64,000 nucleotides of DNA from Escherichia phage moha: the sequence record MN850590.1. One strand, given 5' to 3'. Shown piece after piece: positions 1-45,655 of the stretch (the stretch's first letter is position 1; each line of letters opens with the position of its first letter). Under the pieces are notes generated by a model that was given only the letters and a program-made list of their open reading frames with translations, made no database searches and had not been told where the DNA came from. Both the position numbers and the translations under genes were made by a program.

Positions 1-1755
1 AATGCTAATAAAGATTCTCGTGTTTTTCCAACTCAACGGGACCTTATGGCTGGTATTGTGTCTAAACACATTGCCAAAAATATGGTCCCGTCTTTTATTA
101 TGAAAGCGCATGAAAGCGGAATTATCCATTTCCACGATATTGATTATTCCCCTGCTCTTCCGTTTACTAATTGCTGTTTAGTCGATTTAAAGGGGATGCT
201 TGAGAACGGATTTAAATTAGGCAATGCTCAAATTGAAACGCCTAAATCGATTGGTGTTGCTACTGCAATTATGGCACAAATTACTGCACAAGTTGCTTCC
301 CATCAATACGGCGGAACGACTTTTGCTAATGTAGATAAAGTACTTTCTCCTTATGTTAAACGCACCTATGCAAAACATATTGAGGATGCAGAAAAATGGC
401 AAATCGCTGATGCGTTGAATTATGCTCAATCTAAAACAGAAAAAGATGTATACGATGCATTCCAAGCTTATGAATATGAAGTAAATACTCTTTTTAGTTC
501 AAACGGGCAAACGCCTTTTGTAACAATTACATTTGGTACGGGAACTGACTGGACTGAACGAATGATTCAGAAAGCAATTCTGAAAAATCGTATTAAAGGT
601 CTTGGTCGTGATGGGATAACTCCTATTTTTCCTAAACTTGTTATGTTTGTTGAAGAAGGTGTTAATCTTTATAAAGATGATCCAAACTATGATATTAAAC
701 AACTTGCGTTAGAATGTGCAAGCAAAAGAATGTATCCTGACATTATTTCGGTTAAGAATAATAAAGCTATTACCGGCTCATCTATTCCTGTTTCTCCAAT
801 GGGTTGTCGTAGTTTCTTGAGCGTATGGAAAGATTCGACTGGTAATGAAATTCTTGATGGACGTAATAATCTTGGTGTTGTAACACTGAATCTTCCTCGT
901 ATCGCATTAGATTCTTATATTGGAACCCAGTTCAATGAACAGAAATTTGTTGAATTATTCAATGAACGAATGGATTTATGTTTTGAAGCATTGATGTGCA
1001 GAATTAGTTCCTTAAAAGGAGTTAAAGCGACTGTTGCTCCTATTCTTTACCAAGAAGGTGCATTCGGGGTTCGTCTTAAACCTGATGACGACATAATTGA
1101 GTTATTTAAAAACGGTAGAAGTTCAGTGTCTTTAGGGTACATTGGTATTCACGAATTGAATATTCTTGTCGGTCGTGATATTGGGCAAGAAATTTTAACT
1201 AAAATGAATGCTCATCTTAAGCAGTGGACCGAAAGAACTGGATTTGCTTTTAGTTTATATTCTACTCCTGCTGAAAACCTTTGTTATCGCTTCTGTAAAC
1301 TCGATACAGAAAAATATGGAAGCGTAAAAGATGTTACTGATAAAGGCTGGTACACTAATAGTTTCCATGTTTCAGTAGAAGAAAATATTACTCCGTTTGA
1401 AAAGATTTCTCGTGAAGCGCCATATCATTTCATTGCGACAGGTGGTCACATTTCTTACGTTGAACTTCCTGATATGAAAAATAACCTAAAAGGTCTTGAG
1501 GCCGTGTGGGATTATGCTGCACAACATTTAGATTATTTTGGTGTTAATATGCCAGTAGATAAATGTTTTACATGCGGAAGTACCCATGAAATGACTCCTA
1601 CTGAAAACGGATTTGTTTGTTCTATTTGTGGAGAAACTGATCCTAAAAAGATGAACACAATAAGAAGAACATGCGGATATCTTGGAACTCCTAGCGTTGT
1701 TCCATGGAATTTAGGTAAAATGAAAGAAATGGTAAAACGAGTAAAACATGCATAG
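1..1755 (+). CDS. nrdD: Anaerobic ribonucleoside-triphosphate reductase NrdD (5' end outside window)
   Basis: Frame open to window edge; C-terminal glycyl-radical motif RRTCGYLG and Cys cluster CFTCGS...CSICGE; followed by nrdG as in T4. Confidence 0.9.
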   Translation, partial: NANKDSRVFPTQRDLMAGIVSKHIAKNMVPSFIMKAHESGIIHFHDIDYSPALPFTNCCLVDLKGMLENGFKLGNAQIETPKSIGVATAIMAQITAQVASHQYGGTTFANVDKVLSPYVKRTYAKHIEDAEKWQIADALNYAQSKTEKDVYDAFQAYEYEVNTLFSSNGQTPFVTITFGTGTDWTERMIQKAILKNRIKGLGRDGITPIFPKLVMFVEEGVNLYKDDPNYDIKQLALECASKRMYPDIISVKNNKAITGSSIPVSPMGCRSFLSVWKDSTGNEILDGRNNLGVVTLNLPRIALDSYIGTQFNEQKFVELFNERMDLCFEALMCRISSLKGVKATVAPILYQEGAFGVRLKPDDDIIELFKNGRSSVSLGYIGIHELNILVGRDIGQEILTKMNAHLKQWTERTGFAFSLYSTPAENLCYRFCKLDTEKYGSVKDVTDKGWYTNSFHVSVEENITPFEKISREAPYHFIATGGHISYVELPDMKNNLKGLEAVWDYAAQHLDYFGVNMPVDKCFTCGSTHEMTPTENGFVCSICGETDPKKMNTIRRTCGYLGTPSVVPWNLGKMKEMVKRVKHA

Positions 1756-2578
1756 GTATTATATAATTTATAAAATAACAAATATAATTAATTCAAAGGA
1801 ATATATCGGTGCGCATAGCACCGATAACATAAATGACGGTTATATGGGGTCAGGAACATTGATTCGTGCCGCTTTATTAAAATATGGTAGAAAAAATTTT
1901 AATAAAGAAATTTTACATGTTTTTGATAATGAAAAACAAATGTATGATAAAGAAGCTGAACTTGTAACCGAAGAGTATTGTCTAAAAGAAAATACATATA
2001 ATATTAAACCTGGTGGAAAAGGTGGAACTGCCTATGAACAGACACTTGAACATCGCCGTAAAAATAGTTTAGCAAATAAAGGTAAAAAGAGAACAGAAGA
2101 AACTAAAATAGCTATTTCACGTGCTTTAAAGAAATATAAACGTACGCCAGAGCATCAAGCAAATTTAAATAAAGCCGTAAGCATAGCTATGAAGCGAAAA
2201 GATGTTAGAAGTAAATTAGCTGGAGAGCGGTCTGAGAAAGATAAATTATCTATATCAAACGGTGTTAAAAAATATTACAATTCTTTGAGTGAAGAAGAAC
2301 GCGAACTTCATCGCAAGCGAATTATTGAAGGTAAAAAGAATTCTCCCATGTCATTGGAATCTAGACAAAAGCTTTCAAAAGCTTTAAAAGGGCTTCAAGT
2401 TGGTTCAAAAAATCCAATGTATGGAAAAATTTCTCCAACTAGCAAAACCGTTTCAGTTGACGGTATTAAATATGATTCAATTAAAAAGTGCTCAAATGCC
2501 ATAAAAGTTTCTAGACATCTTATACTAAAACGCTGTAATTCTACTGATGAAGCTTGGAAAAATTGGATATTATTATGA
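1748..2578 (+). CDS. Free-standing GIY-YIG family homing endonuclease
   Basis: N-terminal YIIYKITN...KEYIGAHS motif block, lysine-rich C-terminal half; overlaps nrdD stop (8 nt) and nrdG start (ATGA). Confidence 0.7.
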   Translation: MHRYYIIYKITNIINSKEYIGAHSTDNINDGYMGSGTLIRAALLKYGRKNFNKEILHVFDNEKQMYDKEAELVTEEYCLKENTYNIKPGGKGGTAYEQTLEHRRKNSLANKGKKRTEETKIAISRALKKYKRTPEHQANLNKAVSIAMKRKDVRSKLAGERSEKDKLSISNGVKKYYNSLSEEERELHRKRIIEGKKNSPMSLESRQKLSKALKGLQVGSKNPMYGKISPTSKTVSVDGIKYDSIKKCSNAIKVSRHLILKRCNSTDEAWKNWILL

Positions 2579-3045
2579 ATTATGATAGATTTTATCCTTG
2601 CGATTTTGTGAATGGCCCTGGTTGCAGGGTCGTTCTTTTCGTTACAGGTTGTTTGCATAAATGCGAAGGGTGTTATAATAAATCAACATGGAATGCTAGA
2701 AATGGTATTCCATTCACCGGAGAGACACTAGAACAATTAATTGAATGTTTGAATAATGATTATATAGAAGGATTGACTATAACCGGAGGTGACCCTCTCT
2801 ATCCTGATAACAGAGATGTGATTCACTCTGTGGTTCAAACTATTAAAAATCTTTATCCCAATAAAAGCATTTGGCTGTGGACAGGATATAAGTTTGAAGA
2901 TATTAAACAGCTAGAAATGCTTAAATATGTTGATGTTATTATTGATGGGAAGTATGAGAAAAATCTTCCGACTAAAAAGCTGTGGCGAGGATCAGATAAT
3001 CAGCGACTTTGGTCAAATACCGATGGGGTGTGGAAACATGATTAA
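2575..3045 (+). CDS. nrdG: Anaerobic RNR activating protein NrdG
   Basis: YPCDFVNGPG and CLHKCEGCYN (CxxxCxxC) motifs; ATG at 2575 preferred over TTG at 2554. Confidence 0.9.
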   Translation: MNYDRFYPCDFVNGPGCRVVLFVTGCLHKCEGCYNKSTWNARNGIPFTGETLEQLIECLNNDYIEGLTITGGDPLYPDNRDVIHSVVQTIKNLYPNKSIWLWTGYKFEDIKQLEMLKYVDVIIDGKYEKNLPTKKLWRGSDNQRLWSNTDGVWKHD

Positions 3046-3155
3046 ATTGAATTACATTATGGATACTATAAATGATATGATTTTTCGTTTTGGTCCAGAA
3101 TTTTATTCGCAATATAGTTTAATGATTATCAATGCTTAGTTAATTAAGGGTAAAT

Positions 3156-3371
3156 ATGTACAAATTTCGTAAAGGTTTAGCTGATTTTCTTACAACTGTA
3201 ACGTTCTTTTTGTTTATGGCAGTTGGAGCTATTTTTCTTATTCCTTTTACTGGTGTATTTTTCGTGATTAGTTTAATTTCTCCAGAAAAGGGTTTATCCT
3301 CCAGCGAATTCAATGAACGTTTGGACAAAATTACTAATAAACTGAATTCTGTTCTTGATAAAAAGGCTTAA
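3156..3371 (+). CDS. Hypothetical small membrane protein
   Basis: 71-aa ORF with one hydrophobic helix, AAGGG RBS. Confidence 0.45.
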   Translation: MYKFRKGLADFLTTVTFFLFMAVGAIFLIPFTGVFFVISLISPEKGLSSSEFNERLDKITNKLNSVLDKKA

Positions 3372-5918: not shown

Positions 5919-6142
5919 GCGTATTAACAGAAACTTTGATTAATGACCTGCATCTAGCTGGTTACGAAGTTGGTACAAATAGTCTAGGTCTTCCTCAGAT
6001 TGAAGGTCCTGGATTTATTCTAGAATACGAATTCAAACAATGGTGGTTATATGCTACGGTTGACGATGCGTTGAATATTGATTTCGTTGACCAATTTGAT
6101 TCGCTGGATGCTGCTCTTGAAGCAGCAAAGGAACTAGAATGA
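5915..6142 (+). CDS. Hypothetical acidic protein
   Basis: 75-aa ORF, overlapping stop/start. Confidence 0.5.
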   Translation: MSVLTETLINDLHLAGYEVGTNSLGLPQIEGPGFILEYEFKQWWLYATVDDALNIDFVDQFDSLDAALEAAKELE

Positions 6143-6408
6143 AATTAACTCGAATCAGTATAACTGAAGAAAAGCTGGGCGAATTTTATGTTGACGAATA
6201 CATGAAAGTCACGTATTTTCCATTCGTTAAAGGTGTTGGTTTTTGGGAAACTCATGTATCTCAATTAAACGAAGGCGACTATAACGAAACACATGAGAAC
6301 TTTTTAGATTTTCTTTATAATGCCGGTCTTACTGAGCTTTATATCGATATCCATGAGTTCAAACGTTTAATGGAAAAAGTGTTTCAGGCTTATTGTTTGC
6401 TCCGATAG
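6139..6408 (+). CDS. Hypothetical protein
   Basis: 89-aa ORF, overlapping stop/start. Confidence 0.5.
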   Translation: MKLTRISITEEKLGEFYVDEYMKVTYFPFVKGVGFWETHVSQLNEGDYNETHENFLDFLYNAGLTELYIDIHEFKRLMEKVFQAYCLLR

Positions 6409-6415
6409 TATCTCG

Positions 6416-6459
6416 TGCTTTAAGATAGGTCTCTAAATATTATGATATAATAGACCTAT
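6416..6459 (+). promoter_or_regulatory. Promoter-like element upstream of gene 55
   Basis: TGCTTTA at 6416-6422, TATAAT at 6446-6451 inside 8-bp IR ATAGGTCT/AGACCTAT. Confidence 0.35.
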
Positions 6460-6480
6460 GAATTGAGCCAAGAGGTACTT

Positions 6481-7038
6481 ATGACTGAACAAAAACCTAA
6501 AAATAACTATGTGAATAATAAAGAGCTTCTCGCCGCTATAATCGAGTGGAAAAAGGAGCTCTTAAATAATAAAGACCCAAACAAAATTATTCGTCAGAAT
6601 GATACCATCGGTTTAGCAATTATGCTTATCGCCGAAGGCCTGTCCAAACGTTTCAACTTTTCAGGATATACCCAGTCTTGGAAGCAGGAGATGATTGCAG
6701 ATGGGATTGAAGCCTCTATTAAGGGACTTCATAATTTCGACGAAACTAAGTACAATAACCCACATGCATACATAACTCGAGCTTGTTTTAATGCTTTTGT
6801 CCAACGTATCAAAAAAGAACGTAAGGAAGTTGCAAAGAAATATAGTTACTTCGTTCATAATGTCTACGACAGTCATGACGATGATATGGTAGCGTTGGTA
6901 GATGAAACGTTTATTCAAGACATCTACGATAAAATGACGCATTATGAAGAATCCGCTTATAAAGCTCCTGGGGCTGAAAAGAAGGAAGTTGTTAGCGATT
7001 CGCCTAGTTTGGATTTTTTATATGAGGATGACAATTGA
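6481..7038 (+). CDS. 55: Late-transcription sigma factor gp55
   Basis: Near-identity to T4 gp55 as I recall it ([58 protein letters not shown]); ATG 6481 with AGAGG RBS. Confidence 0.9.
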
Positions 7039-7237
7039 CATCTCTAACTACTTAGAAGAACCTTTTGACGAAGCAATCCCTTATTTGGTAAAACTGTTGG
7101 GTCGTGAATTTAAAATTAATTTTGACATCGACCCTTTGAACCCACATGACGTGTCATTTTCGATAAACGGGACTCCAGTTGAATATGAGTTCTGTATTGA
7201 AGAGGATGGACGTTTTTATTTTAATTTAATGAGATAA
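7022..7237 (+). CDS. Hypothetical protein
   Basis: Internal ATG overlapping gene 55 stop. Confidence 0.35.
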
Positions 7238-7238
7238 T

Positions 7239-7562
7239 ATGACTACCGAGATTATTGAAAATAAAGAAGCAGAAGATGCAGTAGCTAAAATGCTAAAAGA
7301 AATCCAAAAGAAAAATGAAGCTGAAGCACGTAAAAAATCCGAAAAGATTCTTAAAAAGAATCGTTTTGAACTAAACCGTCTTTATGCTCATGCTCAAGAA
7401 GCAGCAATTCAAAACAACTTCGAAGCTTACGAATATGCTATTAAGAAATCTCGGGATATTCTACGACAACCATACAATGACAAGTTAATTAAAATCCAGT
7501 GGGTTACTACTCGTCAGGCTATTGAGGACATCATTAATGGCGCTAGTTCAAACAAAGTTTAA
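7239..7562 (+). CDS. Hypothetical Lys/Glu-rich protein
   Basis: 107-aa ORF. Confidence 0.5.
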   Translation: MTTEIIENKEAEDAVAKMLKEIQKKNEAEARKKSEKILKKNRFELNRLYAHAQEAAIQNNFEAYEYAIKKSRDILRQPYNDKLIKIQWVTTRQAIEDIINGASSNKV

Positions 7563-7743
7563 ACGTCTGAAGCTGAACGCAGGGTTCACCCTTAAATTGG
7601 GAGGTCCTCTTTGTGTTAAAATTTCTGAAAAGGAATATCACGACGGTTCTATTACAGAAATTTGTCCGCCTATTGTAAAGGCAGACCCAAAACAACTCGT
7701 ATGGGTTGATTCATTTCAAGTTAAGAAATGGTGGAAACGATGA
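7537..7743 (+). CDS. Hypothetical protein
   Basis: Internal ATG in ORF 7522-7743. Confidence 0.3.
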   Translation: MALVQTKFKRLKLNAGFTLKLGGPLCVKISEKEYHDGSITEICPPIVKADPKQLVWVDSFQVKKWWKR

Positions 7744-7782
7744 GAGAAATCGATTTAGGTATTTTCTGAGAGGTGCTTATGC

Positions 7783-7956
7783 ATGACGAACATCCCGACT
7801 TCTGAAAATTTCGATAAAATCCGTAAAGGCAAAGCAGAAAGAATGAGACGTTTTAAAGAGTCTTATGATAAAGCTAAAGCCGAAGGAACTATTACGTACA
7901 AGCCCATTCGATTTAAAAGTTCAAATGAGCCTCTGTACGGTGTACTATGTGGATAG
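7783..7956 (+). CDS. Hypothetical small protein (57 aa, below ORF-track cutoff)
   Basis: ATG 7783 after GAGAGGTG; stop directly followed by strong terminator. Confidence 0.3.
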   Translation: MTNIPTSENFDKIRKGKAERMRRFKESYDKAKAEGTITYKPIRFKSSNEPLYGVLCG

Positions 7957-7981
7957 GAACTCTTCGGAGTTCCTTTTTTGC
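7957..7981 (+). terminator. Intrinsic terminator
   Basis: GGAACTC-TTCG-GAGTTCC followed by TTTTTT. Confidence 0.8.
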
Positions 7982-8025
7982 TTTATAAACGGATGATAGA
8001 ATGAATTAACTAATGAGGAAATAAT

Positions 8026-9045
8026 ATGAAAATTTTGCACTTAGGCGACTTCCATATCGGAGTCAAACAAGACGACCCATGGGTTCAAGATATTCAACGT
8101 GATGGTATTCGACAAGCAATTGAATACTCTAAGAAACACGGGATTAAAACTTGGATTCAGTACGGTGATTGGTTTGACGTCCGTAAAGCAATAACACATC
8201 GTACAATGGAATTCAATCGTGAAATCGTTGATATGATTTCTAAAGCAGGCATTCACGTTCATGTCACGATAGGAAATCATGACATGGCGTTTAAGAATAC
8301 AATAACACCTAACACTGTTTCTGAATTGTTAACTCAATTTGAAAACTTTACTATTTACGAGCATCCAACTACTGTAGATTTTGACGGATGTCTGATTGAT
8401 ATCGTTCCATGGATGTGTGAAGAAAATACAGGTGAAATCTTAGAGCACATCAAGACTTCTTCCGCAGCGTATTGTGTTGGGCACTGGGAACTGAATGGCT
8501 TTTATTTCTATAAAGGAATGAAGTCTCATGGGCTTGAACCTGATTTCTTAAAGACCTATAAACAAGTCTGGTCCGGCCACTTCCACACAATCTCTGAAGC
8601 TGCTAACGTCAAATATATTGGGACACCATGGACACTTACTGCAGGTGATGAGAACGACCCGCGCGGATTCTGGGTATTTGACACTGATGTTGAACGTATG
8701 GAATTTATTCCTAATGAAACAACATGGCATCGACGAATCACTTATCCGTTTAAAGGCAAAATCAATTATTCTGATTATACTAATCTAGCCTTACGTGTTA
8801 TAGTATCAGAAATTGATTCAGAGTTGACTAAGTTTGAATCTGAACTTGAAAAAGTAGTTCACTCTCTTCGCATGGTTTCTAAAGTTGATAACAGTGTTGA
8901 ATCTGATGACGACCAGGAAATCGAGATTAAATCACTTCAAGATATCATTAAAGAATATATTGACGCGATTCCAGATATCTCAGACGAAGACAGAGAAGCG
9001 CTGGTCAAATATTCCAACGAACTTTATATTGAGGCAACACAATGA
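8026..9045 (+). CDS. 47: Recombination nuclease subunit gp47 (Mre11-like)
   Basis: Calcineurin-like phosphoesterase motifs LHLGDFH, GDWFD, GNHD; followed by gp46. Confidence 0.9.
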   Translation: MKILHLGDFHIGVKQDDPWVQDIQRDGIRQAIEYSKKHGIKTWIQYGDWFDVRKAITHRTMEFNREIVDMISKAGIHVHVTIGNHDMAFKNTITPNTVSELLTQFENFTIYEHPTTVDFDGCLIDIVPWMCEENTGEILEHIKTSSAAYCVGHWELNGFYFYKGMKSHGLEPDFLKTYKQVWSGHFHTISEAANVKYIGTPWTLTAGDENDPRGFWVFDTDVERMEFIPNETTWHRRITYPFKGKINYSDYTNLALRVIVSEIDSELTKFESELEKVVHSLRMVSKVDNSVESDDDQEIEIKSLQDIIKEYIDAIPDISDEDREALVKYSNELYIEATQ

Positions 9046-9299
9046 CTTTAGATGAATTTAACAATGCTGGGCTCGGGCTTGAAGTTGAAATAGACGTTAA
9101 AGATGATGATGGATTCGAGAACACCATCAAGTATTGGATTGAGCCAATACGCGTTGAAGGCGATGAAGTTAAAGCAGTTCATGTCTGCACCGACTGGGCT
9201 ATTGAATTTAGCTTTAATATAATGGACAACGATACTCCCGGCTCTATTCTTAAAATGGCTGAAGCATGTATTGAGGATGCGTATAATGACGAAGACTGA
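9042..9299 (+). CDS. Hypothetical acidic protein
   Basis: 85-aa ORF. Confidence 0.5.
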   Translation: MTLDEFNNAGLGLEVEIDVKDDDGFENTIKYWIEPIRVEGDEVKAVHVCTDWAIEFSFNIMDNDTPGSILKMAEACIEDAYNDED

Positions 9300-17418: not shown

Positions 17419-18054
17419 ATGAAAACTACTCCTATTACTATCGCTATTGACGCAATCGTAAAACAAGCTTCTTCTTTGGCTACTATGGCCAAAGTAATTA
17501 GTCAAAACCCTGCTCGTTATAATGCTATTCTAGAAACTCTTCGACGCCCAGGACTTAGCAATTATGAAAGCCGAGTAATTATTACAGGTGTTGGTAAGAA
17601 TGCTAATATTGCAACTAAAGCTTCTGAGACATTTGCTTCACTCGGTATCCCAAGTATGTACTTGAACACCGGGCATTATTCTCACGGTGATGCAGGATTC
17701 ATTGCGCCTAATGATGTGTTGATTCATATTAGTCGTTCTGGTAAGACCGAAGAAATGATAGGTGTTGCTAAACATCTTCGTATGATTCGTCCGAACGTCA
17801 AACAGATTCTGTTGCATTGTAACCCAGACATTCCACAAGAAAATGAAGCCCTTTTTGATTACTCTTTCTGTACAGGCATCGCAGTAGAGGTTGACGAGAA
17901 CTCTTTAGCTCCGACTATGTCTACTACATTGTTGTTAGCGCTTATCGATACGTTTGCTATCAACCTTTCGTCTGAGCGTGGATTTACCTCTAATGACTTC
18001 CTTAAGTTCCACCCTGGTGGTGCACTAGGTGCCATGTTACGAGGCGAACAATGA
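17419..18054 (+). CDS. SIS-domain sugar-phosphate isomerase (KdsD/GutQ-like arabinose-5-phosphate isomerase, no CBS domains)
   Basis: ITGVGKNANIA, HISRSGKTEE, LAPTMSTT, HPGGALG blocks co-linear with KdsD SIS domain. Confidence 0.8.
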   Translation: MKTTPITIAIDAIVKQASSLATMAKVISQNPARYNAILETLRRPGLSNYESRVIITGVGKNANIATKASETFASLGIPSMYLNTGHYSHGDAGFIAPNDVLIHISRSGKTEEMIGVAKHLRMIRPNVKQILLHCNPDIPQENEALFDYSFCTGIAVEVDENSLAPTMSTTLLLALIDTFAINLSSERGFTSNDFLKFHPGGALGAMLRGEQ

Positions 18055-18194
18055 AAGCAATAACAATAGGACTTTTACTATTGATGCTTGTCATGACTAT
18101 CTACTGGAGCTTAACAGCTCCAGTAATGATTCCAACACTTGTAATTGGATGGATTATGATTGGACTACAAGCAAAGTATGAATGCTTTAACTAG
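18051..18194 (+). CDS. Hypothetical 47-aa hydrophobic peptide
   Basis: ATGA overlap with SIS gene stop; hydrophobic throughout; below ORF-track cutoff. Confidence 0.25.
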   Translation: MKAITIGLLLLMLVMTIYWSLTAPVMIPTLVIGWIMIGLQAKYECFN

Positions 18195-18207
18195 AATAGT
18201 GTACAAT
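18183..18207 (+). promoter_or_regulatory. MotA-dependent middle promoter upstream of nucleotidyltransferase-kinase gene
   Basis: MotA box TGCTTTA (18183-18189), 12-nt spacer, -10 TACAAT (18202-18207). Confidence 0.55.
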
Positions 18208-18235
18208 ACTCCTACTTACCAATGAGGACTTCAAC

Positions 18236-19921
18236 ATGAAAAAAGCTGTTATTCTTGGTGCTGGATTGGCAACTCGTTTATATCCAATAACGCATCATAT
18301 TCCTAAGGTGCTTGTTAACTATAAACAAGACACTATTCTGAGCAATTTGTATACAATTTATTCTGACCTTGGCGCAGATGAAATTATTGTAGTAGTTCAT
18401 TCAAAATTTGCTGAAACTGTTCGAGCTTATTGTGAGCAAGAAGGGTTCAATGTGACTATTCGTACAGTTGATGAAGCGTATGGATCTGCTTATGCTCTTG
18501 CTAAATTACACAAAGATTTAGACGGCCATAATGTAATTGTTAACTGGTGTGATATTATTCCTGATTTTGGTTCATGGTCTTGGAATGTTAACGCAATCTA
18601 TGTTAAAGGTGACGAATGTCGATATAATTTCGACGGTGAAAATATCACTAACGTAGGTTCAACAGGTGGTAATGTTGTAGGAATTTATCAGTTCAAAGAC
18701 TGGGAATTCTATATGGGTTCTACTGATGAAGAAATTCATGAATACTGCAAAGGACGTGATTTCGTAGAATTCCTTTACGCCAGCGCATTCAATAAATCAG
18801 AGCTTATGAATCTAATTGATTTAGGTGATATGCCTAAACTTGAAAAGGCTCATGAAGTTCGTGAACTTAATCGTAGTTTTAATGCAGTTGAAATTGGTGA
18901 AGAAACTGTAACTAAATTCGCATTGACCGAACAGGGTCGAGCTCTTCAGAAAGATGAGATTTCATGGTATCTTAAAGTGAAATCGGATTCAGTTCCTCAG
19001 TTAGTTTCTGTTAATGAAAATAACTTTGAAATGGAACGCATTAAAGGTAAGCCGGCATTTGAATATATTAAATCCAAATCAAGTCTTGCTCGTCCACAAA
19101 TTGTTGATGCAATTTTAGATGCACTGAAATTCAGCACAGACACTTATTTTGTAAGTCCTGAAACTGTTCGTCGTGATTTCACTAAAGAATTCTATACGAA
19201 AGTTATTGATCGTTGTGAAAGCATTCAACCATTGATTGATTCATTTGGTAAAATCACGCATGTGAACTACACTAAGATTGGACGTCTGAAGCCAATGCTG
19301 AAACAAGCTTTAGAACACCTTATTCGTTATCATAACCGTTCTCAGGGGCAGTACTCTGTTATTCACGGTGACCCGAACTTCAGTAATACTATGATTACTG
19401 ATAACGGCGAAGTCAAGTTTATCGACCCTCGTGGATATTTTGGCGAAACCAAGATTTACGGGCCAAAATTGTATGATGAAGCTAAAGTGCTTTATGCTGT
19501 TTCAGGTTATGATGAATTCAATGCTAATCCGACCTGGGGACAGTTTACTATTGATGAAACAACTTGTAATGTGACTATTAACATCAATCCATTAGTTTAC
19601 AAATATGGAAAGATGAGTTCGTTTAACGAGTATCATCATTTGGCAGTGGCAATTATCTGGATTGCATTAGGTGGTTATTTCAAGAATAATCCACTTAAAG
19701 CGGTAGCCGCATATTATAAAGGTATGGAACTTCTGACTAAGCAATTACGTAACATGGGCCGTGTACTTCAGGACGGCTCTATTAGTTATGACGTAGCAGA
19801 ACCTGTAACGGCTACTCTGATTACAAAAAATCCTGGTAAATGGGTACTAACTGATAAAGAAACTGGTGTTTCCTATCGTCCAATCGGTGGCGATATCACT
19901 CATCAATGGGAACGAATCTAA
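18236..19921 (+). CDS. Bifunctional sugar-1-phosphate nucleotidyltransferase / APH-fold sugar kinase
   Basis: N-terminal AVILGAGLATRL nucleotidyltransferase motif; C-terminal HGDPNFSN (HxDxxxxN) and IDPRG kinase motifs. Confidence 0.7.
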   Translation: MKKAVILGAGLATRLYPITHHIPKVLVNYKQDTILSNLYTIYSDLGADEIIVVVHSKFAETVRAYCEQEGFNVTIRTVDEAYGSAYALAKLHKDLDGHNVIVNWCDIIPDFGSWSWNVNAIYVKGDECRYNFDGENITNVGSTGGNVVGIYQFKDWEFYMGSTDEEIHEYCKGRDFVEFLYASAFNKSELMNLIDLGDMPKLEKAHEVRELNRSFNAVEIGEETVTKFALTEQGRALQKDEISWYLKVKSDSVPQLVSVNENNFEMERIKGKPAFEYIKSKSSLARPQIVDAILDALKFSTDTYFVSPETVRRDFTKEFYTKVIDRCESIQPLIDSFGKITHVNYTKIGRLKPMLKQALEHLIRYHNRSQGQYSVIHGDPNFSNTMITDNGEVKFIDPRGYFGETKIYGPKLYDEAKVLYAVSGYDEFNANPTWGQFTIDETTCNVTININPLVYKYGKMSSFNEYHHLAVAIIWIALGGYFKNNPLKAVAAYYKGMELLTKQLRNMGRVLQDGSISYDVAEPVTATLITKNPGKWVLTDKETGVSYRPIGGDITHQWERI

Positions 19922-20307
19922 TGCCCCGTGTAGAAAACATGCTTAATCTTTGTTTTGATGTCGATGATTGCATCACGGAATGGAATAACAATCGTGATTA
20001 CGTGAACTTCAAACCAGACGTCGAAATGGTGTCTGCCATTAATGCCCTGTATGATGCAGGGCATACCATAACGCTTTACACTGCTCGTGGTATGAAGTCA
20101 GTAGGTCCTGGTCGTATAGCAATTGACATTCTCCCAAGTCTGATTCAGAACTTGGAAAACATTGGTTTGAAGTACCATAATTTGCTAACACATAAACCAG
20201 TATATGATTGGATTATCGACGACAAAGCTATGCGTCCTGATGAATTCAAAGCTCTTATGAATAAAGGCGAATTCGAAACATTTAAATCATATAAACCAAA
20301 TCTATAA
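19921..20307 (+). CDS. HAD-superfamily phosphatase (small, KdsC/GmhB-like)
   Basis: Motif I FDVDDCIT, motif IV IIDDK; ATG 19921 overlaps upstream stop (alternative ATG 19906). Confidence 0.6.
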   Translation: MPRVENMLNLCFDVDDCITEWNNNRDYVNFKPDVEMVSAINALYDAGHTITLYTARGMKSVGPGRIAIDILPSLIQNLENIGLKYHNLLTHKPVYDWIIDDKAMRPDEFKALMNKGEFETFKSYKPNL

Positions 20308-20364
20308 TAATTTAAGTAAGACCTGCAAAAACCATCGCATCAATTAACGTGAGATGCAAAAAAA

Positions 20365-21525
20365 ATGAATACTTTTAAAATCGGAACGAATTTTGATTTA
20401 GCTCTTCTTGATAAAATCGTAGAGCTCAATAAAACCTATCCTAATAGCTTGATAAACGAAGTATATGGCTCTACAAGAGAAATGGCTTTTGTAGCAGCCA
20501 GACCTGATTTTAGGCTTCCTGACGTTGACAAAAAGATGTTAGAAGACTACGTTAAACGTTGTAACGAATTAGGTATTTGCTTTAACTATACACTCAACAC
20601 GATAAATCCTGGTTCAAAAAGAGAACTAGTTGAGTGGAAGAAGAAAGCTATTCAGGATTATGTTCAGTATCTTTGGTCAATAGGCGTATGGCGTATTACT
20701 ATCGCTAACCCTGTTGTTATGGAAATTGTTCGTGAAGTCAATAAAGATATTGAGATTGAAGTTTCAACAATTCTACATGTCGATGCTGTAACTCAAATAA
20801 AATACTTGCATGACCAATATAACATCAAAAAGGTCTGTTGCGGAATTCATAAGAACCGTTCAGTTTCTTTCCTGAAGCGTGCAGCAGAGTTTTGCAATAA
20901 GAACAATATAATATTTGAAGTTCTTGTAAATGAGTTCTGTTCTAATGCTGGTAAAGGGTATACAACACATTGTAGCTATCGTGACTCTTGCTATATTTTC
21001 CATAGTACTGATGTTACCGCTGATGATGCTAAATCCTTAAATGGATATCCAATGCAACACTGCATTAAAGCTCGTGATACAGACCCATTTAACTGGCTGA
21101 GAACTCGTTTTGTTCGTCCTCAAGATTTGAAACTTTATAATGATATTGGTATCACTCAATTCAAAGTTTCAGGACGTACAGGTAGCACAGACTACATTTT
21201 GAAAGTTCTTGAAGCATACGCTTCTGAAAAGTTTGAAGGTAATTTGTTAGAACTGTGGAAGCCTTTAGAGACTATTTTCACTCTTGAAAACGAAACTGAG
21301 TTTTCACATACAGTAAATATTGAAACCTCTTTGTTAGATGGCTTTTTAGAAAAAAGGTGGTTCAGACATCCAGATTTCGATTGTGCTAATGAAATCTGCG
21401 GGACGACGTGTACATATTGTGAAAGATATTATAAACGTCAATTATCTAAAAACGGGTTAGCAGAAAACTCTATATCTATTATTGATATAACTAACTCTGA
21501 TGACGCTTTGAGGTACCCGGAATGA
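20365..21525 (+). CDS. Cys-rich putative Fe-S enzyme (family unassigned; U32-like or radical-SAM-like)
   Basis: 386 aa; CX3CX2C (CGTTCTYC) near C-terminus plus internal Cys cluster EFCSNAGKGYTTHCSYRDSC. Confidence 0.55.
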   Translation: MNTFKIGTNFDLALLDKIVELNKTYPNSLINEVYGSTREMAFVAARPDFRLPDVDKKMLEDYVKRCNELGICFNYTLNTINPGSKRELVEWKKKAIQDYVQYLWSIGVWRITIANPVVMEIVREVNKDIEIEVSTILHVDAVTQIKYLHDQYNIKKVCCGIHKNRSVSFLKRAAEFCNKNNIIFEVLVNEFCSNAGKGYTTHCSYRDSCYIFHSTDVTADDAKSLNGYPMQHCIKARDTDPFNWLRTRFVRPQDLKLYNDIGITQFKVSGRTGSTDYILKVLEAYASEKFEGNLLELWKPLETIFTLENETEFSHTVNIETSLLDGFLEKRWFRHPDFDCANEICGTTCTYCERYYKRQLSKNGLAENSISIIDITNSDDALRYPE

Positions 21526-21802: not shown

Positions 21803-22519
21803 ATGGGAAAACATAACACAATGAAATATATCAAAGCCGCAGATTTTCAAACCGCATTTAAAGCAGTCAATCGTGAAATTTTAGAAAACCCGGAATTCGT
21901 AACTGATTCTCGTATTGGACGTTGTAATGAAATTGGGTCTATGACAGTAGTTGTTGACACTCCATCATCATTCAAAATGACCGACCCACGTATTAACCGC
22001 ATCTCTTATGAATATGCCGAAGACTTCTGGAAGTTTATGATTTCTGGTGGTACCAACGCAGAAGAAGCGTTTAAGGCATATCCTAATGTCGCTAAATTTA
22101 TTTCTAAACCAAAATCAGATGTTTTGCCGGCGAACTTCAACACTTTCTATGGTCCTCGCATTGCGGCTCAATTACCAGCTCTTCTAAAAGAACTTAAAGA
22201 GAAGCCTAACTCTCGAAGAGTTGTGTTCCAAATTCTAGAAAGTTCTGATCAGGCTTTGCTTGATTCGGACGAAACGCTTGAATATCCATGTACTGACTCA
22301 GTGACTTATTATATTCGTGATGGTAAGCTTTATACCCACTGTCATATGCGTTCTCAGAACTGTGCTGTTGTTATGCAGTTGGATTTTTATCTCCAAGGAA
22401 AATTACTTCATTATATCGCTAACGAATGTGGTGTAGAAGTTGGTGATTATACTCATACCATGGTAAGTGCCCATGTGTTTGAACGTGATTTTGATTATGT
22501 TAAAGGATTCCTTGACTAA
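21803..22519 (+). CDS. 42: ThyA-fold pyrimidine hydroxymethylase (dCMP hydroxymethylase-like)
   Basis: Candidate nucleophile Cys in EYPCTDSV and HMRSQN block typical of thymidylate synthase/dCMP hydroxymethylase family; position of T4 gene 42. Confidence 0.7.
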   Translation: MGKHNTMKYIKAADFQTAFKAVNREILENPEFVTDSRIGRCNEIGSMTVVVDTPSSFKMTDPRINRISYEYAEDFWKFMISGGTNAEEAFKAYPNVAKFISKPKSDVLPANFNTFYGPRIAAQLPALLKELKEKPNSRRVVFQILESSDQALLDSDETLEYPCTDSVTYYIRDGKLYTHCHMRSQNCAVVMQLDFYLQGKLLHYIANECGVEVGDYTHTMVSAHVFERDFDYVKGFLD

Positions 22520-23418
22520 TGGCTATTTTCCGCGTACCTATCTTGAGTATGCGGTCTTATGAAACTGGACAGTATGCTATCCTTAAGGATGGCAACTTCC
22601 AACTTCATTTGCACCGTGCTAATCCAGGTGATGTGATTACATATCCACGTAATGCATCTGATATTAAAGAATGTGAACGTCTTTTCCCAGAATTTAAGTT
22701 TGTTCCATTATGGTATAAAGATAACGCGTATAACACTCGTAAATATTTCTGGTCTGAAAATGAATTTGTGGTTGATTCATTAATTGCTTATTATGATTGT
22801 GATTTTCTAATCACAGATATCACTGGATATGATGGTGCTTTTGATGTAGAATTCAATTTCAATATCACTGCAGACCCTAATAAACCACGTTTTTATATTG
22901 ACGAATTCTTAAAAACTGATATGTTGTCGGTTAATCGTTCACTTCAAACTACTGTGTTGAATGAACGTCAAAAAGAAGTGCTGGTTAACGCAGGTGCAAA
23001 TGGTAATAAGATTATCGTAACGCAGAAAGTTATACGTCCTTCCATCATGCAGCGTCTTGTAGGTGATTTGGCTCCTATTCATCTAGATGGTATTTTTCAT
23101 CCATTTCGAATTAGTGACCCATGCTATCGTTTTGAACAAGTGGTTGAATGTGCAATTCAATTAGGTCAACCGCTTTATATAACCGATCCAAATAATAGCT
23201 TCGACAGAAATAAGTATCCTGAAGAAGCGTTGATTCGAATTTTTAAACCAACTAAAACTGAGTACTATCAAATTCTTAAAGGACGTCCGAAGATTCAATA
23301 TTTCGAAAATCCTGAAGAAGTATTCCATCCAGGTCTTGGTGAGTTCATCTACTTTAATGCTTTAATTTCTTCGCCGTATAATATACCTAAATACGAAGAT
23401 GTCGTAATCGAGGAATAA
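22519..23418 (+). CDS. Hypothetical protein in the beta-gt slot (candidate DNA-modification enzyme)
   Basis: 299-aa ORF, no recognised motifs; lies where T4 has beta-glucosyltransferase. Confidence 0.55.
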   Translation: MAIFRVPILSMRSYETGQYAILKDGNFQLHLHRANPGDVITYPRNASDIKECERLFPEFKFVPLWYKDNAYNTRKYFWSENEFVVDSLIAYYDCDFLITDITGYDGAFDVEFNFNITADPNKPRFYIDEFLKTDMLSVNRSLQTTVLNERQKEVLVNAGANGNKIIVTQKVIRPSIMQRLVGDLAPIHLDGIFHPFRISDPCYRFEQVVECAIQLGQPLYITDPNNSFDRNKYPEEALIRIFKPTKTEYYQILKGRPKIQYFENPEEVFHPGLGEFIYFNALISSPYNIPKYEDVVIEE

Positions 23419-23419
23419 A

Positions 23420-23968
23420 ATGGCTAAAATTATTTTAGTAGACGGCCCAGATAATGCTGGTAAAACAACTTTCATTAATGACATAATGGAAATTAGTGAA
23501 AGATATGTAAAGATTGATTTCCCTAAACGAACAGTTGATGGACGTTTCGATGTTAAGTCTCGAAATGAAGTTGGCTGTTTCGAAACGATGTTGAATTATT
23601 TAGACCCTACTAAGATTTATCTGTTAGACCGTGGATATATTAGTAACTGGGTTTATGGACGTATTCGACAAGATGCGGACTCGGTTCTTGATGTTTATGA
23701 ACAGGATTATGTTCGTCTTTGCCAAAACCATGATGTGTTCACAATTATTTTAACACGTAACGAAATGACTGAAAGTTTTGAAGACGACCTTATTACTTTG
23801 TCTTCATTCGGTTTTAATACAGTCATTTCACATTTTGAAGAGTTTGCAATTCATAACAAAATCCAAACGTATCAATTACTTAATCATGATGGTGCTAACA
23901 AAGTTATAGGATTTAATGCAAGCGAACGTAATGATTTGATTACAGAAATCATCAAATGGGCTCGTTAA
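23420..23968 (+). CDS. P-loop nucleoside-monophosphate kinase-like protein (Tmk-like)
   Basis: Walker A DGPDNAGKTT; LDRGY...YG resembles thymidylate kinase DRY/lid region. Confidence 0.6.
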   Translation: MAKIILVDGPDNAGKTTFINDIMEISERYVKIDFPKRTVDGRFDVKSRNEVGCFETMLNYLDPTKIYLLDRGYISNWVYGRIRQDADSVLDVYEQDYVRLCQNHDVFTIILTRNEMTESFEDDLITLSSFGFNTVISHFEEFAIHNKIQTYQLLNHDGANKVIGFNASERNDLITEIIKWAR

Positions 23969-42631: not shown

Positions 42632-42648
42632 GGGCTTCGGCCCTTTTT
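42632..42648 (+). terminator. Intrinsic terminator
   Basis: GGGC-TTCG-GCCC followed by TTTTT. Confidence 0.7.
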
Positions 42649-42672
42649 GCTTTAGATTTCGGATGATAGAAT
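42648..42672 (+). promoter_or_regulatory. MotA-dependent middle promoter upstream of gene 39
   Basis: TGCTTTA (42648-42654), 12-nt spacer, -10 TAGAAT (42667-42672). Confidence 0.5.
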
Positions 42673-44554: not shown

Positions 44555-45655
44555 ATGAAAGTTATGTTTATCCCATCTCGTGCAGTCCCATTTAACCCAG
44601 AACGTGTACAAGGTGGTCTTGAAGCAGTACATTTAAATGTGTTGAAATATCTTGTGTCCATCGGTGCCGATATTGATTATATTGGTTTTGATAATGACAC
44701 ATTTGGTGATTGGAAGGTTAATCATCATCCTGTTGGTCATCTGACTAAATTCAGTCTAGGTATGAGTTATACTATGGCTCGTAAGATTGTTGAACTAGCC
44801 GGCATCCATGAATACGATTTTGTTGTTACTATGGAACCGACTAAACTAACCGTTCAGGCAATTAAAGACGCAGGTCTCTCTAAAGTTCATAAGAATTTTA
44901 TGGCAACACCATTTGAACCGGTATCTCGTGGCATTGTTCAAATTTGGGACCAGACTATTCAAATTCATAAGAATGGTGGTAAGAGTTATGCTCCTACTAA
45001 AGCCTTCCGTGAATTTGAACGTAAATATTGTTATATGACTTCAGGTCTGACTGACAAAATTGATTATGATTATTGGCGAGCAAATCCTTTGTTTGAAGCC
45101 GAAGATTATCCGGTTATTTGTTTGACTGAAAAGCCAGAAGTTCTTCCGGCGACGGATCTGATTATTAGTGCACAACGTTATGACACTAAAATGCGTCGTA
45201 CTGATGTTGCTCTTGAAGCGATTAAAGCACTAGGCGAAAATGGTGCAGGATACTGTCCAAGCAAATGGGCGCCACCGGCTAAATATCCTGTTATTATTGA
45301 TGCTCCACACAGTGAAATTATGGAACGTCTTAAAACAGCTAAAGCACTTATTAATACGTGTCCTGACACAGGTACGGTAGAGAATAGTTCTATTGAAGCC
45401 ATCTCTAAAGGTGTCCCTGTAATCCAGTTAGTTTTTAAGGATTATCCTCATGCGACATTTGAATACGACCCAGATACTGTGCGTGTAGAAATTGATTCCT
45501 CTACTCCTAAGAAAGAAGTAGTTGCGCTTTACACAAAAGCTGTATTAGAATTCACTGACACATACGAAGCTCGAGTTAAACGTGCTGAAGCAGTATGGAA
45601 GAAGTATAACCGAGATGCAGTTGTTGCGATGTGGGATAAAATCTTCACAGCGTAA
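44555..45655 (+). CDS. GT-B fold glycosyltransferase (candidate DNA sugar transferase)
   Basis: N-terminal MKVMFIPS...GG.E.V and C-terminal ENSSIEAISKGVPVIQ resembling GT-B donor-binding E-x7-E region. Confidence 0.6.
   Translation: MKVMFIPSRAVPFNPERVQGGLEAVHLNVLKYLVSIGADIDYIGFDNDTFGDWKVNHHPVGHLTKFSLGMSYTMARKIVELAGIHEYDFVVTMEPTKLTVQAIKDAGLSKVHKNFMATPFEPVSRGIVQIWDQTIQIHKNGGKSYAPTKAFREFERKYCYMTSGLTDKIDYDYWRANPLFEAEDYPVICLTEKPEVLPATDLIISAQRYDTKMRRTDVALEAIKALGENGAGYCPSKWAPPAKYPVIIDAPHSEIMERLKTAKALINTCPDTGTVENSSIEAISKGVPVIQLVFKDYPHATFEYDPDTVRVEIDSSTPKKEVVALYTKAVLEFTDTYEARVKRAEAVWKKYNRDAVVAMWDKIFTA

Follow-up and report, generated by a model that had tools for sequence, protein, structure and literature searches.

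The interval between gene 55 and gene 47 in the analysed stretch of Escherichia phage moha DNA (MN850590.1; hereafter the window, 64,000 nucleotides) very probably represents the ordinary, previously annotated arrangement of Mosigvirus, the RB69-like T-even phages, in which the small genes a-gt.5 to a-gt.2 stand without an alpha-glucosyltransferase gene (a-gt) and the base is arabinosylated instead. The alpha-glucosyltransferase would be missing in RB69-like phages because their cytosines carry arabinose, not glucose. The gene order, the absence of a-gt and the replacement chemistry are already published (Thomas 2018; Lee 2026). The four small ORFs of the interval should be named a-gt.5 to a-gt.2, and the 64-kb window should be classed as Mosigvirus.

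Gene content of the interval between genes 55 and 47

Four small ORFs on the plus strand, encoding 71, 107, 68 and 57 aa and followed by a strong terminator, lie between the two genes (7022-8025). From the ORF listing, no ORF longer than 107 aa was found on either strand of the interval, and the minus-strand ORFs, of 31-50 aa, were without support. The initial annotation, which had described this region as holding small ORFs and no gene of glycosyltransferase size, was thus confirmed, as was its placing of a-gt (1203 bp) between 55 and 47 in T4. A search against Rfam detected no RNA family in positions 6000-9200. The genes are as follows.

6481..7038, plus strand: gene 55, late-transcription sigma factor, 185 aa; bounds the interval on the left
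7022..7237, plus strand: a-gt.5 ortholog, 71 aa, read from its ATG at 7022 (as called mechanically, the ORF runs from 6944)
7239..7562, plus strand: a-gt.4 ortholog by T4 orthology, 107 aa, predicted to be all-helical
7537..7743, plus strand: a-gt.3 ortholog, basic, 68 aa from the ATG (73 aa if begun at the TTG, 7522)
7783..7956, plus strand: a-gt.2 ortholog, 57 aa; last gene of the small-ORF block
8026..9045, plus strand: gene 47, SbcD/Mre11-like recombination nuclease subunit, 339 aa; bounds the interval on the right

The borders were assigned from the similarity to T4 gp55 (90.7% identity over 182 aa, E = 3e-114) and T4 gp47 (75.5% over 339 aa; Pfam Metallophos), and the gene at 6481..7038 is also named 55 in the annotations of near-identical Mosigvirus records.

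The four small ORFs are real genes and not chance ORFs, as indicated by their similarity to T4, their Pfam and PHROG families and purifying selection. By tblastn, the identities to the T4 counterparts were 46.6% for a-gt.5 (E = 1e-14), 57.7% for a-gt.4 (E = 3e-32), 70.8% for a-gt.3 (E = 2e-29) and 75.9% for a-gt.2 (E = 3e-24). Three of the products exceeded the Pfam gathering cutoffs, namely a-gt.5 (DUF5491, 49 bits; cutoff 27), a-gt.4 (DUF2654, 96.6 bits) and a-gt.2 (DUF5486, 97 bits), and no Pfam family was found for a-gt.3. All four matched PHROG families at E = 1e-24 to 1e-36 (1169 for a-gt.5, 951 for a-gt.4, 1648 for a-gt.3 with E = 2e-34, and 2140 for a-gt.2). The dN/dS values against T4 ranged from 0.12 to 0.22 for a-gt.4, a-gt.3 and a-gt.2 (0.19 for a-gt.4 and 0.12 for a-gt.3), and dS was saturated for a-gt.5. 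The most widely kept ORF of the interval is a-gt.4, a homolog of which was present in all of the 55-to-47 intervals examined, including those of Krischvirus and the Acinetobacter phage.

With respect to function, Pfam returned only DUFs for the small ORFs, the PHROG matches are labelled "unknown function", NCBIfam gave no match, and the PDB sequence search gave none below E = 0.7. A secondary PHROG match of a-gt.2, labelled head maturation protease, was taken as a mislabelled or fused family and set aside. A single-sequence AF2 model of a-gt.4 (pLDDT 75, four helices) found no Foldseek match in the PDB (E >= 3), and that of a-gt.5 (pLDDT 59) was too poor for a fold search. A full-text literature search for a-gt.2, a-gt.3, a-gt.4 and a-gt.5 matched only PMC1524935, in which a-gt.4 is among the conserved ORFs without known function. 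We infer that the four products are not structural but serve as accessory proteins of the early or middle phase, with no part in DNA glycosylation.

The arrangement was compared with those of related phages. Positions 6400-8100 of the window are 99.8% identical to Mosigvirus vB_EcoM_G53, and 152 records matched at 95% identity or more. RB69 (NC_004928) has the same order and spacing, 55, a-gt.5, a-gt.4, a-gt.3, a-gt.2 and 47 (RB69p071 to p066); its small proteins are 95-100% identical to those of the window (a-gt.5 100%, a-gt.2 94.7%) and its gp47 is 99.7% identical, so that the differences are at the strain level only. The same order is annotated in mar005P1. The RefSeq annotation of RB69 has carried this gene order for two decades. 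The order and strand of the four genes 3' of gene 55 are also shared with RB14 and JS98, and the length of a-gt.2, 57 aa, is common to the window, RB14, RB69 and JS98.

In T4 (NC_000866), the order is 55, a-gt.5, a-gt.4, a-gt.3, a-gt.2, mobB, a-gt, 47.1 and 47. The small ORFs, the overlapping pairs, the flanks, and the hairpin and MotA box 3' of a-gt.2 are the same as in the window; the overlap of a-gt.5 with gene 55 is 17 nt in both, and that of a-gt.4 with a-gt.3 is 26 nt here versus 32 nt in T4. The difference is an extra 2.25 kb in T4 between a-gt.2 and 47, which contains mobB (an HNH homing endonuclease gene), a-gt, 47.1 and a second hairpin/promoter module. RB14 has the T4 order without mobB. 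The small ORFs had been proposed to fill the alpha-gt slot; they are present, but they do not occupy it, as a-gt.5 to a-gt.2 coexist with a-gt in T4.

The spacer between a-gt.2 and gene 47

The true a-gt slot is located between a-gt.2 and gene 47, and is represented here by a noncoding 69-bp spacer (7957-8025) that holds a terminator, a MotA-type middle promoter motif and a ribosome-binding site (GAGGA at 8015-8019, for gene 47). The elements are as follows.

7955..7980, plus strand: intrinsic terminator, with an 8-bp stem and UUCG loop (7955-7974) and then a TTTTT T-run
7979..8002, plus strand: predicted MotA/AsiA-dependent middle promoter of genes 47 and 46 (TGCTTTA, 11-nt spacer, TAGAAT)
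7990..8023, plus strand: the a-gt slot proper, 34 bp without a BLAST counterpart in T4, where the equivalent is 2252 bp (mobB, a-gt, 47.1)

In the blastn alignment with T4, positions 6416-7989 of the window align until just beyond a-gt.2, and the alignment resumes at 8024-9066 from the start of gene 47. Megablast matches to Tequatrovirus likewise end at 7989. In the alignment with T4, of the kind that had been suggested as a check, the small ORFs are orthologous and 34 bp here stand in place of 2252 bp.

The terminator begins within the stop codon of a-gt.2. Its folding energy of -13.9 kcal/mol (z = -4.5) was not reached by any of 200 shuffled sequences, in agreement with the strong terminator noted earlier after the 57-aa ORF. 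It is also annotated in G53 and NBG1, and a homologous hairpin is found 3' of a-gt.2 in T4, RB14 and JS98. The segment TTTTGCTTTA, followed by an 11-nt spacer and TAGAAT (7976-8002), fits the consensus of T4 middle promoters, in which the MotA box (a/t)(a/t)(a/t)TGCTTtA precedes a sigma-70 -10 element TAnnnT by 12 +/- 1 bp (PMC2988021). This pattern of MotA box and -10 element was found 12 times in the window versus 1.8 expected, and none of 100 shuffles reached 12. A sigma-70 promoter scan of the interval gave 7 candidates versus 5.6 expected in shuffles, and this showed no enrichment; only the MotA-type pattern is informative. In T4, the counterparts of the predicted promoter have been mapped as middle promoters, namely PmobB (start 38682) and P47 (start 36576), and motA is encoded in the window at 53112-53744. 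Judging from motif and homology, the promoter in the spacer is probably active, with a predicted start of transcription near 8009-8010.

The spacer most like this one is that of JS98 (Dhakavirus), which also has no a-gt at this position. Its spacer after a-gt.2 (hairpin, TTTTTTGCTTTATA, CGGATGATAAAATGAA, GAGGA) is collinear with that of the window. The JS98 spacer leads to 47.1, which is translationally coupled to 47, whereas that of the window leads to 47 directly.

Arabinosylation genes and the replacement of glucosylation

Several ORFs of the window are 98-100% identical to RB69 p048, p046:47, p003, p045, p050, p052:53 and p055. The RB69 record splits p046:47 and p052:53, whereas each is read as a single ORF in the window. 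The genes are listed below.

17419..21525, plus strand: sugar-nucleotide (UDP-arabinose) cluster, flanked by gene 43 and the gene 42 homolog
17419-18054, plus strand: SIS isomerase (Pfam SIS)
18236-19921, plus strand: nucleotidyltransferase-kinase fusion (Pfam NTP_transferase)
19921-20307, plus strand: small phosphatase-like ORF in the cluster
20365-21525, plus strand: U32-like protein (Pfam Peptidase_U32)
21803..22519, plus strand: thymidylate-synthase-family enzyme at the gene 42 position, ortholog of the RB69 gp48 5-hydroxy-dCMP synthase
22519..23418, plus strand: candidate first arabinosyltransferase, 299 aa, directly 3' of the gene 42 homolog
44555..45655, plus strand: candidate second arabinosyltransferase, 366 aa, GT-B/GT4-like, between rIIA.1 and gene 39, ortholog of RB69 ORF003c/gp3

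The sugar-nucleotide cluster is 98.6-99.7% identical to RB69 p055, p052:53 and p050, and the roles of its genes follow the proposal in PMC13326640. The product of 21803..22519 (Pfam Thymidylat_synt) has 24.8% identity to T4 gp42 versus 99.2% to RB69 p048, and 5-hydroxy-dCMP synthase activity was demonstrated for RB69 gp48 (PMC13326640). The next gene, 22519..23418, occupies the position of b-gt in T4 and ba-gt in RB14 and is 98-100% identical to RB69 p046 plus p047. No Pfam, NCBIfam or PDB sequence match was obtained for its product, and the glycosyltransferase fold and the role of first arabinosyltransferase are as proposed in PMC13326640. The second candidate is 99.2% identical to RB69 p003 and essentially identical to PDB 9IQZ/9IR0, deposited as 'Glycosyltransferase subfamily 4-like N-terminal domain-containing protein' (E = 2e-248). 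A remote similarity of RB69 ORF003c/gp3 to T4 a-gt was found by HHpred (Thomas 2018, PMC6024577).

The chemistry of these phages is known from the literature. The DNA of RB69 and of Mosigvirus NP contains arabinosyl and diarabinosyl 5-hydroxycytosine, not glucosyl-hydroxymethylcytosine (hmC), as determined by LC-MS and NMR (PMC13326640, PMC13390438), and the DNA of NicPhage was chemically typed as 5-ara-dC (PMC13390438). Phage NP shares the a-gt.2-to-47 junction of the window at 99.0% identity. It was stated in 2018 that RB69 is without a-gt, b-gt and ba-gt (Thomas 2018, PMC6024577), and the chemistry and genes of arabosylated 5-hydroxycytosine were published in 2026 with synteny figures that cover the same stretch from nrdD to rIIA. 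The sugar-nucleotide cluster, the gene 42 homolog and the two transferases of the window are to be interpreted through this RB69 literature.

In the explanation that we propose, the prereplicative block a-gt.5 to a-gt.2, conserved and carried by all close T4 relatives, is kept 3' of gene 55 and closes with the intrinsic terminator, followed by the predicted MotA-type middle promoter and the ribosome-binding site of gene 47. Hydroxymethylcytosine would not be made; the diverged thymidylate-synthase homolog would produce 5-hydroxy-dCMP instead, if the chemistry described for RB69 and NP applies here. The arabinose donor would be supplied by the dedicated gene cluster, and the base would be arabinosylated by two GT-B transferases, one at the beta-gt position of T4 and the other beside rIIA. 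Because such a base differs from hmC, a-gt would find no hydroxymethyl acceptor, and a 5-hydroxy-dCMP synthase, arabinose donor genes and two transferases together would mean that the glucosylation pathway was replaced from the base upward. The positional replacement is located at the beta-gt slot (22519-23418), not at the 55-to-47 interval.

The conclusion that glucosylation was replaced and not supplemented is supported. The initial annotation had drawn the same conclusion from the empty slot; the conclusion stands, with negative glycosyltransferase searches and the RB69 genes present, but the empty slot does not serve as its proof. By itself it is weak evidence, because glucosylating phages also have an empty slot: a-gt is missing at this position in Dhakavirus, Karamvirus, Moonvirus, Krischvirus and one Acinetobacter phage as well, and Karamvirus CC31 has homologs of b-gt and ba-gt (PMC6024577).

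Origin of the empty a-gt slot

The a-gt cassette is missing here and has left no remnant. By tblastn, T4 a-gt found nothing in the window, including every frame of the 55-to-47 interval (best E = 2.7), and the best values for T4 and RB14 a-gt against the window were 1.3-2.7. None of seven queries (T4 a-gt, b-gt, mobB and 47.1; RB14 a-gt, the T2-type ba-gt and 47.1) had a significant match, either in the window or in the complete sequence (167,834 bp) of G53, its nearest relative. Absence beyond the 64-kb window was judged on G53 as a proxy, to which most of the window is 95-98% identical. An alpha-gt homolog elsewhere, which had been named as the finding that would overturn the replacement reading, was not detected at the BLAST level in the window or G53. 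A remote GT-B relative is the gene at 44555-45655, the candidate second arabinosyltransferase; it is a different enzyme without BLAST-level similarity to a-gt, so the replacement reading is not refuted by it.

That a-gt was moved to another place, with glucosylation added to arabinosylation, is very improbable. The genome has about 168 kb, of which the window covers 64 kb, so that there is room for such a gene, and the N-terminus of a-gt gave a marginal tblastn match to G53_00137 (E = 0.042). This candidate was rejected, as the match covers 69 aa at 27.5% identity, which amounts to chance when seven queries are run, and the 200-aa product of G53_00137 belongs to no Pfam family. Nothing else was found in complete G53, no RB69 homolog was found by Thomas (2018), and only arabinosylated cytosines were detected in the DNA of RB69 and NP. 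A spread sample of the 657 phage records bearing a-gt contained only Tequatrovirus-type phages (coliphages and those of Shigella, Yersinia, Serratia and Citrobacter), phages of Klebsiella and Raoultella, and Erwinia phage Cronus; the Mosigvirus records that match positions 6400-8100 of the window at 95% identity or more were all missing from this sample. Even less credence can be given to the small ORFs being decayed remains of a glycosyltransferase, a search for which had been proposed. The only points in its favour are their position and the historical 'a-gt.N' names. In T4, RB14, the Klebsiella phage and Cronus, the same ORFs stand intact next to a working a-gt; they have Pfam or PHROG families of their own and are under purifying selection; no similarity to a-gt was detected by tblastn in any frame of the interval. 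An artefact, be it a laboratory deletion mutant or a mis-assembly, is just as hard to accept, since the contiguous a-gt.2-to-47 junction is shared by 142 independent phage records from many countries and hosts, including NicPhage, at 84-99.8% identity.

Whether a-gt was lost or never gained is a more even question, and we lean slightly towards its loss in the Mosigvirus lineage after the split from Tequatrovirus. In a gp55+47+46 tree, Mosigvirus and Tequatrovirus, which carries a-gt, are sisters with 100% bootstrap. The position of a-gt at the a-gt.2-to-47(.1) slot is exactly shared by three lineages, Tequatrovirus and two outgroups, the Klebsiella T4-like group (Roth78) and Roskildevirus (Erwinia phage Cronus). 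The divergence of a-gt between T4 and the Klebsiella phage also follows that of its flanks (66% versus 70% for gp47), as predicted by vertical descent. These points stand against an ancestral empty junction, in which Mosigvirus never had a-gt and the gene entered Tequatrovirus, the Klebsiella group and Roskildevirus independently or through homologous recombination in the conserved flanks. Such a history is nevertheless a plausible, if less probable, account: the empty slot is the commoner state among the sampled lineages (Mosigvirus, Dhakavirus, Karamvirus, Moonvirus, Krischvirus and the Acinetobacter phage), 55 adjoins 47 in cyanophages, one Pelagibacter phage and Vi1-like phages, the collinear spacers of JS98 and the window point to an old empty configuration, and the deeper nodes of the tree are poorly resolved (25-61%). 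Parsimony hardly separates three gains from three to four losses on this tree.

If a-gt was lost, the spacer may retain a trace of the event. In T4 and RB14, a hairpin and a MotA box stand on both sides of the a-gt cassette. In its 5' half (the a-gt.2 hairpin and TTGCTTTATAAA), the promoter module of the window matches the upstream one of these two modules, and in its 3' half (CGGATGATAGAATGA) it matches the downstream one. The single gene 47 promoter of the window could then be a recombination scar, left when a-gt was precisely excised in Mosigvirus after the switch to arabinosyl-5-hydroxycytosine. We regard this as rather unlikely, and the same junction evidence may also fit the convergent reuse of a functional promoter consensus. 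If excision was mediated by the modules, a consistent crossover point would lie inside GCTTTATA.

Arbiol, Comeau and Krisch reportedly described in 2010 the promoter-early stem-loop ('PeSL') elements that act in modular exchange in T4-type genomes. The a-gt flanks resemble these systems in that repeated modules of a stem-loop and a promoter stand at the borders of cassettes and are possible short homologies. PeSLs, however, contain early promoters and lie in hyperplastic regions, whereas the a-gt flanks contain middle promoters. The value of the present analysis is mainly one of annotation; beyond this, the junction offers a small idea on the swapping of modification cassettes between T-even phages. 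If the recombination scar is real, modules of a terminator and a MotA box would provide short homologies for the gain and loss of DNA-modification genes in these phages.

Gene content between 55 and 47

The interval between genes 55 and 47 of phage moha contains the following features.

6481-7038, plus strand, gene 55 (ATG at 6481, stop at 7038)
7022-7237, plus strand, a-gt.5 ortholog, 71 aa, overlapping gene 55 by 17 nt
7239-7562, plus strand, a-gt.4 ortholog, 107 aa
7537-7743, plus strand, a-gt.3 ortholog, 68 aa from ATG (73 aa from an upstream TTG)
7783-7956, plus strand, a-gt.2 ortholog, 57 aa
7955-7974, plus strand, hairpin with 8-bp stem and UUCG loop, plus T-run
8026-9045, plus strand, gene 47

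When both strands were scanned, no ORF longer than 107 aa was found in this interval, and the minus-strand ORFs were 31-50 aa and without support. The folding energy of the hairpin was -13.9 kcal/mol (z = -4.5). The corresponding order in T4 is 55, a-gt.5, a-gt.4, a-gt.3, a-gt.2, mobB (an HNH homing endonuclease gene), a-gt (the alpha-glucosyltransferase gene), 47.1 and 47, and RB14 differs only by the absence of mobB. By tblastn, T4 a-gt.5, a-gt.4, a-gt.3 and a-gt.2 matched the four ORFs with 46.6% (E = 1e-14), 57.7% (E = 3e-32), 70.8% (E = 2e-29) and 75.9% (E = 3e-24) identity, respectively. Their proteins are 95-100% identical to the RB69 counterparts, and the RefSeq annotation of RB69 and the mar005P1 record both give 55, a-gt.5, a-gt.4, a-gt.3, a-gt.2, 47 for the same stretch. 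Three of the four passed Pfam gathering scores (DUF5491, DUF2654, DUF5486), all four matched PHROG families of unknown function, and dN/dS against T4 was 0.12-0.22 where dS was measurable. The four ORFs are real genes under selection, which coexist with a-gt in T4. A homolog of a-gt.4, already included in a 2006 list of conserved ORFs of unknown function (PMC1524935), was present in every 55-47 interval examined, those of Krischvirus and an Acinetobacter phage included.

The initial annotation had described small ORFs and a strong terminator with no transferase-sized gene, which the ORF scan and the hairpin score bear out, and its conclusion also holds. Its identification of the slot does not: the four ORFs are orthologs of the T4 genes a-gt.5 to a-gt.2 rather than occupants of the a-gt slot, and they do not derive from a transferase. 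The actual slot is the 69-bp terminator and promoter spacer between a-gt.2 and 47.

The a-gt.2-to-47 junction

In a blastn comparison with T4, window 6416-7989 aligns as far as the hairpin downstream of a-gt.2, and 8024-9066 aligns from the gene 47 start; between these blocks T4 has 2252 bp and the window 34 bp. The spacer reads a-gt.2 stop, hairpin, T-run, TGCTTTA, 11 nt, TAGAAT, GAGGA and the gene 47 ATG. In the T4 middle-promoter consensus, the MotA box lies 12 ± 1 bp from the -10 element (PMC2988021), and TGCTTTA-11 nt-TAGAAT fits it. The MotA-type pattern is found 12 times across the window, where chance predicts 1.8, and motA itself is present (53112-53744). In T4, the homologous sequences that follow a-gt.2 and a-gt have been mapped by experiment as the middle promoters PmobB (start 38682) and P47 (start 36576). 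For these reasons, 7979-8002 is predicted to be the Mosigvirus gene 47 middle promoter.

In T4 and RB14 a copy of this module stands on each side of the a-gt cassette. The window module agrees with the upstream copy in its 5' half (hairpin and TTGCTTTATAAA) and with the downstream copy in its 3' half (CGGATGATAGAATGA). A precise excision between two repeated modules, or an insertion in the opposite direction, would produce such a hybrid; functional convergence of promoter sequences explains it equally simply. The JS98 a-gt.2-to-47.1 spacer is collinear with the whole window spacer. This hypothetical hybrid-promoter reading is the only mildly new element of the analysis, and the essentials (gene order, absence of a-gt, arabinosylation) are already annotated and published. 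Gene 39 is preceded by a MotA-type promoter (42648-42672) that has the 13-nt spacer and -10 string CGGATGATAGAAT in common with that of gene 47 (7979-8002). Spacers of a similar form, 'CGGA...TGATAnAAT', are repeated at the borders of cassettes in T4, JS98 and a Klebsiella phage, and such strings hint that a regulatory module is reused or mobile.

Megablast with 6400-8100 gave 152 phage records with at least 95% identity, the top match being Mosigvirus vB_EcoM_G53 (G53; 99.8%), which is 95-98% identical to the window across nearly all of 3352-64000. The junction-spanning query 7783-8300 was contiguous in 142 records, including the chemically typed NicPhage, and therefore the empty junction is fixed in the genus and no artefact. 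Tequatrovirus matches to this query end at window 7989.

Window 1-3351, without a counterpart in G53, carries nrdD (46-1755) and nrdG (2554-3045) together with a free-standing ORF (1748-2578) that resembles homing endonucleases and has NUMOD3 and I-TevI DNA-binding motifs. In JK45, too, a homing endonuclease accompanies nrdD and nrdG, and thus the anaerobic reductase region is variable within these phages. Relative to G53, the window is least conserved in the distal long tail fibre gene (minus-strand 1163-aa ORF, 57127-60618), in which 57883-58999 is unaligned and 58999-59988 has 79% identity; 57883-59988 is the usual host-range hypervariable region.

Distribution and origin of the empty slot

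The a-gt.2-to-47 slot was compared among related phages.

Tequatrovirus (T4, RB14): a-gt present
Klebsiella phage Roth78: a-gt present
Roskildevirus (Cronus): a-gt present
Dhakavirus JS98: no a-gt; 47.1 kept
Karamvirus: no a-gt
Moonvirus: no a-gt
Krischvirus: no a-gt
Acinetobacter phage Konradin: no a-gt

Genes 55 and 47 adjoin in cyanophages, a Pelagibacter phage and Vi1-like phages. T4 a-gt matches 657 phage records; those sampled are Tequatrovirus-type coliphages, Shigella, Yersinia, Serratia and Citrobacter phages, a Klebsiella and Raoultella group at ~66% identity and Erwinia phage Cronus at 56%, and five more bear 'Cyanophage' names. No Mosigvirus record from the 6400-8100 megablast appeared in a spread sample of the 657.

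The small membrane-protein gene 47.1 occurs without a-gt in JS98 (L014 6754-6897), and none is annotated in the a-gt-bearing Roth78 and Cronus, so that 47.1 and a-gt behave as independent cassettes of the same slot. A 47-aa ORF stands at the 47.1 position in the Moonvirus phage NM4.3 of Citrobacter (L017 2861-3004).

In a neighbour-joining tree of gp55+gp47+gp46, Mosigvirus pairs with Tequatrovirus as its sister group (100% bootstrap); the clade around them includes the two other a-gt-bearing lineages, and the deeper nodes are weak (25-61%). The divergence of a-gt tracks that of its flanking genes: T4 and the Klebsiella phage share 66% identity in a-gt, 70% in gp47 and 78% in gp55. We somewhat favour loss of a-gt in the Mosigvirus lineage, and independent gains in the other lineages are a serious rival.

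Arabinosylation genes in place of glucosylation

Karamvirus CC31, whose slot is empty, has b-gt (beta-glucosyltransferase) and ba-gt (T2-type transferase) homologs (PMC6024577), and hence an empty alpha slot alone does not show that a phage lacks glucosylation. This lack is shown by whole-genome absence together with RB69-type genes. An a-gt homolog elsewhere, named by the initial annotation as evidence against its reading, was looked for: T4 a-gt, T4 b-gt, RB14 ba-gt, mobB and 47.1 gave no significant tblastn match in the window or the complete 167,834-bp G53 genome. The best a-gt match (E = 0.042), over 69 aa in a 200-aa protein without a Pfam family, was taken as chance.

In RB69, which contains arabinose, homologs of a-gt, b-gt and ba-gt are all missing, and ORF003c was proposed as a remote GT-B arabinosyltransferase (Thomas et al. 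2018, PMC6024577). The cytosines of RB69 are mono- and di-arabinosylated 5-hydroxycytosine; as candidates, gp46:47 and gp3 are named for the transfer and gp50, 51, 52:53 and 55 for arabinose-donor synthesis (Lee et al. 2026, PMC13326640). Mosigvirus NP has the same chemistry, and the nrdD-to-rIIA region, which the window covers, was aligned for T4, T6, RB49 and RB69 (2026 AEM paper, PMC13390438). The window orthologs of the RB69 modification genes are 98-100% identical.

17419-18054, p055 ortholog
18236-19921, p052:53 ortholog
20365-21525, p050 ortholog
21803-22519, p048 ortholog at the gene 42 position, 99% identity to RB69 gp48
22519-23418, p046:47 ortholog, candidate transferase
23420-23968, p045 ortholog, nucleotide-kinase-like, 182 aa, 99.5% identity
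44555-45655, p003 ortholog, 366 aa

PDB 9IQZ/9IR0 are essentially the same protein as the p003 ortholog (E = 2e-248) and were deposited as 'Glycosyltransferase subfamily 4-like N-terminal domain-containing protein'; a literature search found no paper describing these entries. The p045 ortholog, between the candidate transferase and uvsX, had no Pfam match, and phosphorylation of 5-hydroxy-dCMP is only a proposed role for it in the literature. The p046:47 (299 aa) and p052:53 (561 aa) orthologs are single intact ORFs, whereas the RB69 RefSeq record splits each in two (p046/p047, p052/p053); this agrees with PMC13326640, which attributes the separation of 46 from 47 in that record to a sequencing error and treats p052:53 as one protein. 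Several public records label the gene at the gene 42 position dCMP hydroxymethylase or thymidylate synthase.

The p046:47 ortholog directly follows the gene 42 homolog, the place of b-gt in T4 and ba-gt in RB14. Therefore, the positional replacement is at the beta-gt slot, and the alpha-gt slot is simply empty. The p048 ortholog has only 24.8% identity to T4 gp42 (dCMP hydroxymethylase), and the reported product of gp48, the RB69 gene 42 homolog, is 5-hydroxy-dCMP, not hydroxymethyl-dCMP (Lee et al. 2026, PMC13326640). Without a hydroxymethyl group on the modified base, a-gt would lack an acceptor. The absence of a-gt, b-gt and ba-gt from the window and G53 and the near-identical RB69-type genes support the proposal that glucosylation was replaced, not supplemented, and the replacement of the pathway begins with the base itself.
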